This document shows, in pieces, positions 6,167-10,153 of a stretch of 64,000 nt of DNA (position 1 is the first letter of the stretch; every line of letters starts with the position of its first letter). Made by a program: the position numbers and the translations under genes. Below the pieces are notes generated by a model. It saw only the letters and a list, made by a program, of their open reading frames with translations, was not told the origin of the DNA and made no database searches. Where the stretch lies: positions 32,001 to 96,000 of the forward strand of contig CAWAQU010000009.1 of NCBI GenBank assembly GCA_963784355.1, given 5' to 3'. The stretch is from an uncultured bacterium. GTDB taxonomy: Bacteria; Patescibacteriota; JACMRA01.

Positions 6167-7375
6167 TTAGCTGCTTTTATAGTAATTTAATATCCCTGAA
6201 AGACCTATCATTACGGCATTATCACCGGTCAAGCTAAGATTAGGAATAAAAATATTTTTGAGTCTGTTTTTTACTTTTAGCTCTTCAATTTTTTGTCTAA
6301 GTAACAGATCAGCAGATACGCCACCGGAAAGACCTATTGTAATAGGTTTGTATTTTTTTATCCCCAGTTCAAATTTGTTGATAAGTTGCTTGGTTACAAC
6401 AGTTCTGGCAGATACACACACGTTATAAATAAAGTCTAATTTTTGGTTTTTTTCAGAAGGATCCAGATTTCTGTAATTCATTAGTTTTTTTATTTCGTCA
6501 GGACCCAACTGTTTCTCAAAAGCAAAATTTGGAATTTTTTGATCCTGGATATGATATCTCACAGCAGTTTTTAATCCTGAAAAAGAATAGTTTAGATCTG
6601 CACTTTGCTTCATCCCTACCGGAAAATTGCAATAATTACCTTCAAATAAACCTGATATTTTTGCTACATGCATACCACCTGGATATGGCAAGCCCAGCAT
6701 ACGACCTACTTTATCCAAACACTCCCCGGCTGCATCATCTAAGGTTTTACCTACTATTTGCCAACTATTCCAGGAATTTAGAAGGATTATTTGTGAATTT
6801 CCACCGGAGACTAAAAGATGTAGATGAGGAAATACTTCTGATTTTATTTCAATTTCGGGATTGTAAAAGCTACTTGCCACATGCCCTTTCAAATGATTTA
6901 TCGAGCATACCTCTATTGCTTTATTTTGTCTTTCTCCTATATAAAAACTCATACTTTTAGCAAATTCCATACCTACCCTAAGGGCAGAAATTAGTCCGGG
7001 CTCAGTTGTGACAAATATTTTATCGACTTGAGACAGTAAATCTAGGTCTTCAGCATCAAGCGTAATGGAGTCAAATGATAAATTTTCATCCAAGTTATGT
7101 TTTAAGTTTGAAACTGTGTTGTTTTTAATACTTTCCTTGACCTCCTGAAGTAGCATTTTTAATAAAAAGTGGATTTGCTCAGCATGTTTTCTAGCTCCAA
7201 TTTCAGGGATTACACCCCCATATTCAGCGTGAATCTTGATTTGAGAAGAAACAATACTACCTAAAACTTTAAATGAATTTAAATATGCATAAAAATCTAA
7301 ATTAGCATTCAAATCCCCTTCTACAACAGCTAAGGAAGTCTCGTCACAACTGGTCTCAATACTCAGGTAAAGCAT
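6167..7375 (-). CDS. tsaD: tRNA N6-threonylcarbamoyltransferase TsaD
   Basis: IETSCDET, YGGVIPE, NHLKGH, LLVSGG, TLDDAAGE, SFSGLKTA, DNAVMIG. Confidence 0.97.
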   Translation of the reverse strand: MLYLSIETSCDETSLAVVEGDLNANLDFYAYLNSFKVLGSIVSSQIKIHAEYGGVIPEIGARKHAEQIHFLLKMLLQEVKESIKNNTVSNLKHNLDENLSFDSITLDAEDLDLLSQVDKIFVTTEPGLISALRVGMEFAKSMSFYIGERQNKAIEVCSINHLKGHVASSFYNPEIEIKSEVFPHLHLLVSGGNSQIILLNSWNSWQIVGKTLDDAAGECLDKVGRMLGLPYPGGMHVAKISGLFEGNYCNFPVGMKQSADLNYSFSGLKTAVRYHIQDQKIPNFAFEKQLGPDEIKKLMNYRNLDPSEKNQKLDFIYNVCVSARTVVTKQLINKFELGIKKYKPITIGLSGGVSADLLLRQKIEELKVKNRLKNIFIPNLSLTGDNAVMIGLSGILNYYKSS

Positions 7376-7380
7376 ATAAT

Positions 7381-8964
7381 TTAGTTTATTTTAGTTTCCT
7401 CAGGACTTTTTGTTATTCTTTTTTTAGCTGATTCAAGCTGCCAAAACGGTACCCACTGCCTTTTGCTTAGCTCCTTGTCAGTTATAGGTATATAGTAAGT
7501 AAGTGGACTGAAAAATAGAAATGTAGCAAATACTATGAAGCAAGTACCGCTTAAAACTCCGTACAAATAAATTCTGACTTTAGGTATTTCAAGGTATGTT
7601 TTCATTGTATATTGGAAAATTAAAGCAGCCAAAATGTAACTAAGCGTAAGAGGAATTAAATAGTGATAGAGATACATTGCCCTAGGGATTAAAAACATGA
7701 TAATCATGTAAAATAAATACAATGCCAAAAATAATTTAATTTTTTCAAATAGCTTTTGGTCAGTAATTTTTAACCCAAACACGTGTTTGCTTAAAATCAA
7801 GACAATACTCAACAACATTCCTAAAAGCCCGATCAGCCAAGACACTGGATTACCTTGCAAATAAATATATCTTGCACTTTCACTATTGTATTCATAAGCA
7901 TATATTACACTTCTAGCACCAATTGGCCAAGTAATCGGGAAACTTGGGTCGGAAAGAGTCTGATAATTAGAGGGATTCAAGCTTTCTACATTTATATGGT
8001 GCTTAAAAATATAGAGTATGTTGATTGCGTAGAATTTTAAGACTCCACGTGCAGTTAAATTTTCTTGACCTTCCAAAGAATTTTTATAGTTTGTGTTATT
8101 TATATATTTTGCGTAAGTATCTCCATGTATCTCTTTTCCAAGCAATCCGTGAAGGCCATAAATTAAAGCAGTTGATAGAATAATTGCCGAAATAAAAACA
8201 ATTGCTTTCGATACAAAACCCTTAAAGTATTTGGGTTGATTTATTTTTTTTATAAAATTTTCTTGATTCAGATGACTTAAGTTTTTATCTTTTAAGTAAA
8301 TTAATACAAAACAAAGTACTAGAAATAAACCATTTACCTTAACTAAAATCGGTAGAGAAACAAGCAAGCCTAAAATAAAATATTCCTTAAATGATACAAA
8401 GTTTAATTGTGGCTTTCCAGAAGATAGGCTATCCCACAATTTCATAAAGTAAATTAGAGCTAAAAATATAAAAAACAACTGGGTACTTTGCAATAGTGCG
8501 GCTCTTGTATCTACAATTATAGCATTGTCAAATAAATAGACTAGTGAAAAAAAGAAGGCCAGGGTATTATTTTGTAGTAAAATACATAAAAGCCAGAAAA
8601 AGAGTGTAGCAGCCAAAATACCAAAGATTATAGGAAAAAATCTGGCTCCGGTGTAATTGTAAGTACCGGGAATATTCTCTACACTATATTCAGTTGTTAA
8701 AAATTCTTCTGGAATGTTGGTATTTCCGTTGAAAATCTTTTCCCCTAAAGCTATGAATAATTTACCAAGTGGTGGATGATCTTGTAAAAAAGCAACTCCA
8801 TGGACATATTTTTGAGCAGCCGGAATAAAATAAGCCTCATCCCAGATGCTTTTATTGGGTTGGTTATAATTTGGAAAGTACACACATACAGCCATTAAAA
8901 GTACCGCAAGCGTGTACAAAAACAAACTGTTTTCCACTAAGTATTTTTTAATAGAAGCTAGCAT
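7381..8964 (-). CDS. Protein O-mannosyltransferase-like GT-C (PMT/GT39) membrane glycosyltransferase
   Basis: Polytopic protein with WDEAYF (DE motif), DHPPLGKL, GNP, and YLYHYLIPL, typical of the PMT and PMT_4TMC domains. Confidence 0.8.
   Translation of the reverse strand: MLASIKKYLVENSLFLYTLAVLLMAVCVYFPNYNQPNKSIWDEAYFIPAAQKYVHGVAFLQDHPPLGKLFIALGEKIFNGNTNIPEEFLTTEYSVENIPGTYNYTGARFFPIIFGILAATLFFWLLCILLQNNTLAFFFSLVYLFDNAIIVDTRAALLQSTQLFFIFLALIYFMKLWDSLSSGKPQLNFVSFKEYFILGLLVSLPILVKVNGLFLVLCFVLIYLKDKNLSHLNQENFIKKINQPKYFKGFVSKAIVFISAIILSTALIYGLHGLLGKEIHGDTYAKYINNTNYKNSLEGQENLTARGVLKFYAINILYIFKHHINVESLNPSNYQTLSDPSFPITWPIGARSVIYAYEYNSESARYIYLQGNPVSWLIGLLGMLLSIVLILSKHVFGLKITDQKLFEKIKLFLALYLFYMIIMFLIPRAMYLYHYLIPLTLSYILAALIFQYTMKTYLEIPKVRIYLYGVLSGTCFIVFATFLFFSPLTYYIPITDKELSKRQWVPFWQLESAKKRITKSPEETKIN
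7776..7789. repeat. Palindrome CAAACACGTGTTTG (copy 1, inside the PMT gene)
   Basis: Perfect 14-bp palindrome; the same 12-bp core occurs at 29374, 40732 and 45640. Confidence 0.75.
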
Positions 8965-8986
8965 GATTTGGAAATTATTTGTTAGG

Positions 8987-9071
8987 TTTATTAGTAATCA
9001 GAATATCTGGTTGCTTGCAACGGGGTTAAGTTTTTGTTTCCACAGCTTTGGTGCTCTGATACAAGCTCATT
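8987..9071 (-). repeat. Dispersed ~90-bp non-coding repeat, copy A
   Basis: Minus strand AATGAGCTTGTATCAGAGCACCAAAGCTGTGGAAACAAAAACTTAACCCCGTTGCAAGCAACCAGATATTCTGATTACTAATAAA aligns with 44792-44887 and partly with 28160-28227. Confidence 0.8.
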
Positions 9072-9984
9072 ATGAGATTTTAGTATTTGCCCATTTTTCA
9101 GCTACAAGGGAAATTGGTCTGAGTGAATCAATTTTATGAATTGTATCTTCACTGTTAATTACAGTTAAAAGTCTTTCAAAACCCATACCTGTATCAATAT
9201 TTTTCTTGGTTAGTGGTTCTAGATTAATCGGTTCATGATTTTCTCCCCACTCTCCTTGAAATTCCATAAAAACATGATTCCAAATCTCTACAATTTCTTG
9301 ATCTATAAAGTTTTCAATTTCTACCTTAGCCATATTTGGGAATAAACTTGTTTCAAAATCTATTGAGTTATGGTTTAAAAGGTAGTAAATTTCGCTACAC
9401 GGCCCACATGGCCCTCTGTAAGGAAGCCCCCACCAATTATCTTTACCACTCTTTTTTGTGATTCTATAAATATATTTATCGTTTTGCTCAGTGTTATTTT
9501 TGAAGTCGTATTCTTCTCCAACTGTAGCTTCAATACCTACTTTGGCAAATTCTTCAGTCCAAAATTCAACAGCTTCTTTATCTTCGCCAGCCTCTGTAGA
9601 GCCTTTATAAACAGTCACAAATAATCTTTTCGGATCCAAGCCAAGCCATTCTTTGGAAGTTAAAAATTCAAAACCCCAGCTAATAGAATCTTTTTTAAAA
9701 TAATCTCCAAGACTCCAACTTCCAAGCATCTCAAATAAAGATAAATGTCTATTATCACCCACTTCTTCAATATCTAGAGTACGAATACATTTTTGCGAAT
9801 CGGCTAGCCTGACACCGTCCGGATGTTTTTCTCCCATCAAATAAGGTACAAGCGGATACATTCCGGAATTCACAAACAATAGAGTCGGATCCTCTTTTGG
9901 CAATATACTTGCAGATGGTAGAATAGCGTGGCCCTTAGAAGCCATAAAATCAAGGAAAAGTTGTCTAAGCTGTTTTGAGTCCAT
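9070..9984 (-). CDS. alaS: Alanyl-tRNA synthetase, catalytic domain only (split or truncated AlaRS)
   Basis: DPTLLFVNSGM, SQKCIR, HLSLFEMLG, GPCGPCSEI, EIWNHVFME, DTGMGFERL; stops about 33 residues after motif 3. Start is 9984 or 9996. Confidence 0.88.
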   Translation of the reverse strand: MDSKQLRQLFLDFMASKGHAILPSASILPKEDPTLLFVNSGMYPLVPYLMGEKHPDGVRLADSQKCIRTLDIEEVGDNRHLSLFEMLGSWSLGDYFKKDSISWGFEFLTSKEWLGLDPKRLFVTVYKGSTEAGEDKEAVEFWTEEFAKVGIEATVGEEYDFKNNTEQNDKYIYRITKKSGKDNWWGLPYRGPCGPCSEIYYLLNHNSIDFETSLFPNMAKVEIENFIDQEIVEIWNHVFMEFQGEWGENHEPINLEPLTKKNIDTGMGFERLLTVINSEDTIHKIDSLRPISLVAEKWANTKIS

Positions 9985-10153
9985 ATATAAACTCATTTTT
10001 GAAATATTTATTTAAAACTGGCAAGTACAGAATCACTAAGACCAATTTTTTTGTTTGCAATATAGTTGTATGAAAATAAAGTCTTGACAAATATTAGATT
10101 CTACAATATTAATCAGTATTAACGGTTTACAATATTTATTAGTTAATGTTTGC

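Follow-up and report, generated by a model that had tools for sequence, protein, structure and literature searches.

A free-standing alanyl-tRNA synthetase catalytic chain in Patescibacteriota, a probable subunit of an enzyme encoded in two or three pieces

The window analyzed here, a stretch of 64,000 nucleotides from a patescibacterial genome, encodes on its minus strand (9070..9996) the catalytic part of an alanyl-tRNA synthetase (AlaRS), which we call alpha. The open reading frame (ORF) specifies 308 amino acids from its ATG start, or 304 from a second in-frame ATG, the latter being the form in public gene call P0075. It matched PF01411 (residues 10-302 against profile positions 2-257 of 552, E 2.9e-65) and TIGR00344 (positions 2-249 of 847, 237.8 bits, below the full-length cut-off of 457 bits), and its top NCBIfam match was NF002436, the short-AlaRS model. 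The protein consists of a class II catalytic domain (motifs 1-3) followed by one C-terminal helix at residues about 285-303, and it ends 32 residues past DTGMGFERL. Motif-2 R72 and motif-3 D268, G270, G272, E274, and R275 were invariant in 30 aligned sequences. A first-pass annotation of this DNA had remarked on a short ORF with intact class II motifs, a clean end soon after DTGMGFERL, and an unrelated next gene, and our analysis bore out all three. Alphas of the split class share an extra insertion of ~25 residues at residues ~160-185. In addition, the six split-class alphas displayed have a longer, Cys-free segment at residues ~205-235, where the seven intact phylum relatives displayed have a Cys-rich segment ahead of the EIWN motif.

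Directly downstream of alpha lies a gene for a PMT-family glycosyltransferase, identified by a Pfam match (7381-8964, minus strand). It is followed by a gene for a TsaD homologue of 402 aa (6167-7375, minus strand), whose Pfam model was matched in two stretches; this pattern points to some 60-70 inserted residues close to the N-terminal part. Upstream, the ORF layout places rpsJ and the S10 operon in divergent orientation on the plus strand, leaving an intergenic region (9997..10153) that is presumed to serve as the alpha promoter region. Two sigma-70-like matches were found on the minus strand near the alpha start (10024-9995 and 10160-10131), both weak (9 of 12 each). A search 3' of alpha for a terminator found none. 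The first-pass annotation had linked a possible truncation to a repeat at the stop codon; we found no repeat at 9070, and positions 8700-9400 gave just short, weak two-copy matches. Among the relatives compared, the alpha-rpsJ-rplC neighborhood was seen again solely in G001, a genome of the same genus, and a conserved neighborhood of the split-AlaRS genes was largely absent.

The remainder of the enzyme is encoded elsewhere in the same genome (G000; 13 contigs, 1.14 Mb, 81% complete). A TIGR00344 search identified three further AlaRS pieces on contig C13, with alpha being on C9, and found no full-length alaS in this 81% complete assembly. The first of two plus-strand ORFs, beta1 (L003 1552-1884), encodes 110 aa beginning MYNPSYIIADHIRA and matches PF01411 positions 272-370, where the helical tRNA-recognition domain begins. 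The second, beta2 (L003 1929-2591), encodes 220 aa that comprise the remainder of the helical domain and a tRNA_SAD editing domain. Residues 12-83 of beta2 correspond to PF01411 positions 384-453, a synthetase helical segment of ~70 residues, and PF07973 detected the editing domain with E 1.4e-14. The residues of its HxxxH and CxxxH motifs (H79, H83, C186, and H190) were invariant in 30 sequences. The TIGR00344 scores of the G000 pieces were 236.4, 86.4, 27.4, and 133.9 bits; none reaches 457 singly, and their rough sum of ~484 bits is over the cut-off. We found no C-Ala domain in G000, with no match past TIGR00344 position ~690 of 847, and intact relatives likewise end at position 690-725 and lack C-Ala. 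The only other tRNA_SAD match in G000 lies in a 993-aa frame on C3, which we take to be a candidate ThrRS. A split AlaRS with its second half elsewhere had been one of three explanations offered at first pass, and it is the one that the genome supports, with the qualification that the second half is itself in two pieces.

A spacer of 45 AT-rich nucleotides separates beta1 from beta2 in G000. One stop codon lies in the beta1 frame at L003 1882-1884 and another, ahead of the beta2 ORF, in the beta2 frame at L003 1917-1919, so a single indel cannot fuse the two ORFs. At this junction, reads from one DNA run in which the genome has a small share gave a single contig of 203 nt (L003 1685-1887) that stops short of spanning the spacer. 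Upstream of beta1 on the same contig, an ORF for a type II chorismate mutase (97 aa, L003 1256-1549) leaves just 2 nt between its end and the start codon of beta1, a spacing that suggests translational coupling of the two genes. This neighbor of beta1 is not kept in relatives.

We built a hidden Markov model (HMM) of 592 positions from 12 intact relatives and used it to score all ORFs from 19 split genomes. The alpha ORFs (295-321 aa) covered positions 1 to ~257-260. Beta occurred either as a single chain (327-350 aa, positions ~270 to 587) or as beta1 (110-145 aa, positions ~270-275 to ~375-377) plus beta2 (217-226 aa, positions 383 to 587). The pieces are exactly complementary on this model, and only variable linker is missing between them. 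Both breaks sit in linkers whose length varies among the aligned intact enzymes. By alignment to the E. coli chain 3hxu_A, the break between alpha and beta falls at about E. coli residues 265-273, that between beta1 and beta2 at about 383-386. We also considered inteins and trans-splicing as a source of these pieces and rejected both, as alpha ends and beta starts no more than a few residues from the linker and there are no extra domains. The beta1 of G008 has an N-terminal extension of 30 residues, which looked like putative read-through of a tRNA gene.

The split was found across the class, which we sampled with 27 species genomes from one order and two families. A stand-alone alpha, 54-73% identical to that of the window, was present in 26 of these, and beta parts accompanied it in all 26. 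The number of pieces was counted from ORFs in 19 genomes and from open-frame lengths in seven more. Ten genomes have three pieces (G000, G002, G006, G008, G009, G011, G013, G018, G032, and G037) and 15 have two; G035 has contig-edge fragments to which no state was assigned. In G006, G008, G009, G011, and G013, beta1 and beta2 are on separate contigs, away from contig ends. The one-contig genome G018 (1.27 Mb) carries alpha 565 kb away from beta1 and beta2 and has no other AlaRS. Between its beta1 and beta2 are two same-strand ORFs (346 and 284 aa; L061, G018:C1, 2235-4141) with no Pfam match.

The one class genome with an intact AlaRS, G005, encodes a protein of 647 aa that is 41% identical to the window alpha (L019, G005:C27, a 3.5-kb contig). 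This AlaRS clusters in the tree with intact AlaRS of other classes. Judged by its RplB (65% identical), G005 itself belongs to the class. Horizontal replacement and contamination of the bin are the two explanations for its intact gene. The proteins of the 12 intact relatives that we fetched are 599-643 aa long. In a sample of 401 genomes from the phylum, 126 matches outside the class were listed, of which 123 lay in open frames of 584-907 aa; a further 240 matches went beyond the listing. The other three listed are short alpha-like frames (G056:C23, 363 aa; G280:C20, 308 aa; G183:C2, 442 aa), which may stem from truncation at contig ends, from frameshifts, or from splits that arose independently. 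Public proteins extended the pattern, with 72 further stand-alone beta1 clusters (88-179 aa, 50-81% identity), some on contigs of up to 1.27 Mb, and with alpha relatives of which the best 120 listed were all 289-411 aa. A search of longer public proteins found no fused catalytic-plus-editing AlaRS more than 55% identical to alpha.

Some alphas carry additional enzyme domains. In G011, alpha is a 974-aa open frame (L062, G011:C72, 1486-4410, plus strand) whose two catalytic-domain halves are separated by inserted guanylate kinase, Ham1-like, and alpha/beta-hydrolase domains; the insertion site lies in a surface-loop region that already bears an insertion in the class. We rejected an intein as the origin of this insertion given the nature of its domains. 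Since three further public clusters (1287-1340 aa) have the same architecture, this alpha does not look misassembled. A public protein of 543 aa combines the AlaRS catalytic domain with a HAD domain.

Short, dispersed genes in metagenome-assembled genomes raise the concern that an alaS broken by a frameshift or by misassembly, or a pseudogene on its way to loss, has been mistaken for separate genes. The adjacency of beta1 and beta2 in different frames in G000, and the read contig that does not bridge their junction, would fit such an artefact. Against this, the same termini recur in 19 genomes, compared ORF by ORF, and again across dozens of independent assemblies in public data, the pieces lie on different contigs far from contig ends, and the G000 spacer has stops in both relevant frames. 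In addition, all three pieces (alpha, beta1, and beta2) have dN of 0.2-0.4 with saturated dS, indicating purifying selection on every piece. The medians (dN 0.36-0.40, dS 2.2-2.6 and thus saturated, dN/dS 0.14-0.17) are for the pairs that could be computed (59 of 153 for alpha, 45 of 171 for beta1, and 60 of 153 for beta2), with dS being too saturated in the rest. We consider artefact or decay scarcely credible. The first-pass annotation had also raised a recent truncation, which is ruled out by the class-wide conservation and by low dN with saturated dS, and a misassembly at about 9070, which is excluded because the alpha ORFs of 18 other genomes end at the same alignment position.

In AlaRS trees, the split alpha-plus-beta sequences form one clade (SH-aLRT 100) that arose from the ordinary AlaRS of the phylum, a topology consistent with alpha and beta having separated once. 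The history of the second break appears less simple. The three-piece state is scattered both on AlaRS trees and on a tree of six ribosomal proteins, and the backbones of these trees are star-like. Well-supported branches force at least two changes on the ribosomal-protein tree and at least three on one AlaRS tree, mainly because G000 (three pieces, with adjacent genes) is sister to the two-piece G001 with 99/97 support; G010, also with two pieces, branches next. This makes it probable that beta1 and beta2 separated recently and in situ in G000; the alternative is that re-fusions took place. Given the star-like backbone, we count at least two events of change in the beta1/beta2 split state.

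These trees and the genome searches also bear on whether alpha might be a tRNA-independent paralog that only forms alanyl-adenylate, as the first-pass annotation had suggested, with the real AlaRS being unassembled or charging being supplied by a host. The incompleteness of G000 (81%), the large enzyme modules inserted in some alphas, and the NCBI label on relatives such as P0122 and P0151 ('alanine--tRNA ligase-related protein') would be in keeping with a paralog. However, no second AlaRS catalytic domain was found in any of the 26 split genomes, including the one-contig G018, all 26 contain beta parts, the alpha-plus-beta clade derives from ordinary AlaRS, and the longer public proteins searched included no fused AlaRS above 55% identity to alpha. 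We regard the paralog as very unlikely, because neither G000 nor G018 has another AlaRS catalytic domain.

The tRNAs of these organisms retain the standard identity element for alanine. Both tRNA-Ala genes of G000 have the G3:U70 base pair, as do all 23 tRNA-Ala genes detected by ARAGORN in 30 loci fetched from 18 class genomes. The protein residues that contact this pair are less conserved. We mapped the U70-contacting Asn through alignment to chain 3wqy_A (A. fulgidus N359, E. coli N303, part of a 'PSN' motif). None of the 19 split beta or beta1 proteins examined has Asn here, and all carry Gly (as in G000), Ala, or Pro, whereas the Asn is kept in 11 of 12 intact relatives and in the AlaRS of G005. 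The position of the G3-contacting Asp (A. fulgidus D450) is occupied by Gln, a state shared by five of the 12 intact relatives. Because the U70-contacting Asn is replaced in the split proteins, their tRNA recognition may differ from the textbook mode. Its loss need not abolish G3:U70 specificity, since the Tupanvirus mini-AlaRS, which is without the conserved Asn and Asp, is still G3:U70-specific (PMC10036535).

We modeled the three chains of G000 together from input alignments of 30-31 rows. The model gave an ipSAE of 0.86 for beta1 against alpha plus beta2, compared with 0.40 for the best of three controls. Of 80 solved complexes, 58 reached that mark, as did two of 110 mismatched pairs. Contacts agreed between runs by at least 80%, and the pLDDT of the partners was at least 87. 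The modeled contacts of beta1 were with alpha residues 285-303, parts of the catalytic core, and beta2 residues 6-38, and it is on this basis that the C-terminal helix of alpha is predicted to dock on beta1. The high score may reflect, partly or wholly, likeness to solved structures of single-chain AlaRS. As such structures exist, the model speaks for interfaces of the intact enzyme being preserved in the fragments rather than for binding between chains.

Taken together, we interpret the 308-aa ORF as the catalytic subunit of a non-covalent, multi-subunit AlaRS made of three polypeptides in G000, a reading to which we assign a probability of roughly 85%. Alpha would supply the active site for alanine activation and transfer. 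Beta1 and the first ~60-80 residues of beta2 would rebuild the helical domain that reads the G3:U70 acceptor-stem pair, and the rest of beta2 would be the editing domain that clears mischarged tRNA-Ala. In the model, the last alpha helix and the first beta2 helices would pack onto the beta1 helix bundle, and we propose that the location of every break inside the helical domain is what keeps the pieces together. The three chains would then assemble into an enzyme with AlaRS activity. Points against this reading are the dispersal of the piece genes, the replacement of the U70-contacting Asn, the 81% completeness of G000, and the failure of any piece to reach the TIGR00344 cut-off.

The closest known system is the split AlaRS of Nanoarchaeota. 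In the report on it (PMC11392972), N. equitans alpha is equated with the E. coli fragment 368N, which cannot charge tRNA, the fragment 442N is the minimal charging unit, and alpha and beta of N. equitans are both required for G3:U70-specific charging. With breaks at ~265-273 and ~383-386, all three chains would be needed here to rebuild the equivalent of 442N. The same report ascribes a weak, G3:U70-independent activity to N. equitans alpha alone, and this allows for another possibility, namely that the patescibacterial pieces work separately. Alpha would charge tRNA weakly or independently of G3:U70, or just make alanyl-adenylate, while beta2, with or without beta1, would be an AlaX-like trans-editor, and there would be no stable complex. 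The dispersed genes, the lost U70-contacting Asn, and the complete tRNA_SAD domain of beta2, which has a weak likeness to AlaX chains (2e1b, E 9.5e-07), are compatible with this. But the window alpha ends ~100 residues before N. equitans alpha (about E. coli 265-273 compared with 368). It thus lacks the whole helical domain, and E. coli fragments without that domain are described in the same source as unable to charge tRNA. In addition, beta2 keeps the ~70 helical residues absent from AlaX, which are those modeled on beta1, G3:U70 has been kept in the tRNAs, and beta1 is conserved although no role is conceivable for it alone. Separate working of the pieces is, in our judgment, improbable.

Beta2 and AlaX share the editing fold and the HxxxH/CxxxH motifs. 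Unlike AlaX, beta2 has the N-terminal helical segment of the synthetase and branches within the AlaRS split clade. Two genomes encode extra proteins of ~240 aa that consist of the editing part only (TIGR00344 positions ~445-695; G008:C39:241-894 and G013:C2:51756-52469), which may be free-standing AlaX-like factors beside the split enzyme.

Returning to the multi-subunit AlaRS, its likeness to the nanoarchaeal enzyme extends to separate, distant genes in an ultrasmall, symbiont-type genome and to the placement of the catalytic part and editing on different chains. The nanoarchaeal break (about E. coli 368) is near the beta1/beta2 break here, and each of the two separates the half of the helical domain that bears the Asn from the half that bears the Asp. 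In contrast to Nanoarchaeota, the enzyme here is bacterial, its main break is right after the catalytic domain, three pieces rather than two are found in ten genomes, and C-Ala is absent. The U70-contacting Asn, conserved on N. equitans alpha according to PMC11392972, is replaced here and its equivalent position is on beta1. The position of the alpha/beta break is new, and that of the beta1/beta2 break is near the archaeal one. Our literature search, which covered open full texts, gave the Nanoarchaeota split only and no bacterial split AlaRS.

Two single-chain systems are also informative for comparison. The short AlaRS of the phylum (NF002436 type, ~600-650 aa) have the same catalytic, helical, and editing content without C-Ala and are 41-53% identical to alpha. 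They differ in being one polypeptide, in keeping the 'PSN' Asn (11 of 12), and in having the Cys-rich segment before EIWN (in the seven displayed). The Tupanvirus mini-AlaRS (PMC10036535) is likewise a naturally occurring exception to the AlaRS prototype; it differs in being one chain with catalytic and helical parts and no editing domain. The same paper describes AlaRS as the sole synthetase that keeps its prototype architecture throughout biology.

A bolder extension of our reading holds that the enzyme is an obligate heterotrimer across the class, with the G3:U70-reading domain built from three polypeptides, that beta1/beta2 fission was repeated at one linker near the Nanoarchaeota break, and that free alpha is a platform for enzyme modules (guanylate-kinase/Ham1/hydrolase, in four public clusters). 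We hold this tentatively, at a little short of even odds. If repeated fission at one linker is true, it would mark a structural fault line that is universal in an enzyme otherwise regarded as architecturally invariant.

The class-wide bacterial split sets the catalytic core cleanly apart from the tRNA-recognition domain, which is itself cut in ten genomes. It provides a natural dissection of the cooperation among alanine activation, G3:U70 reading, and editing, and it offers testable material on the modular origin of synthetases. For annotators it carries a warning that an 'alanine--tRNA ligase-related protein' is, in this class, a real and essential enzyme, and the class will be misjudged by completeness estimates or metabolic calls that look for a single alaS gene.
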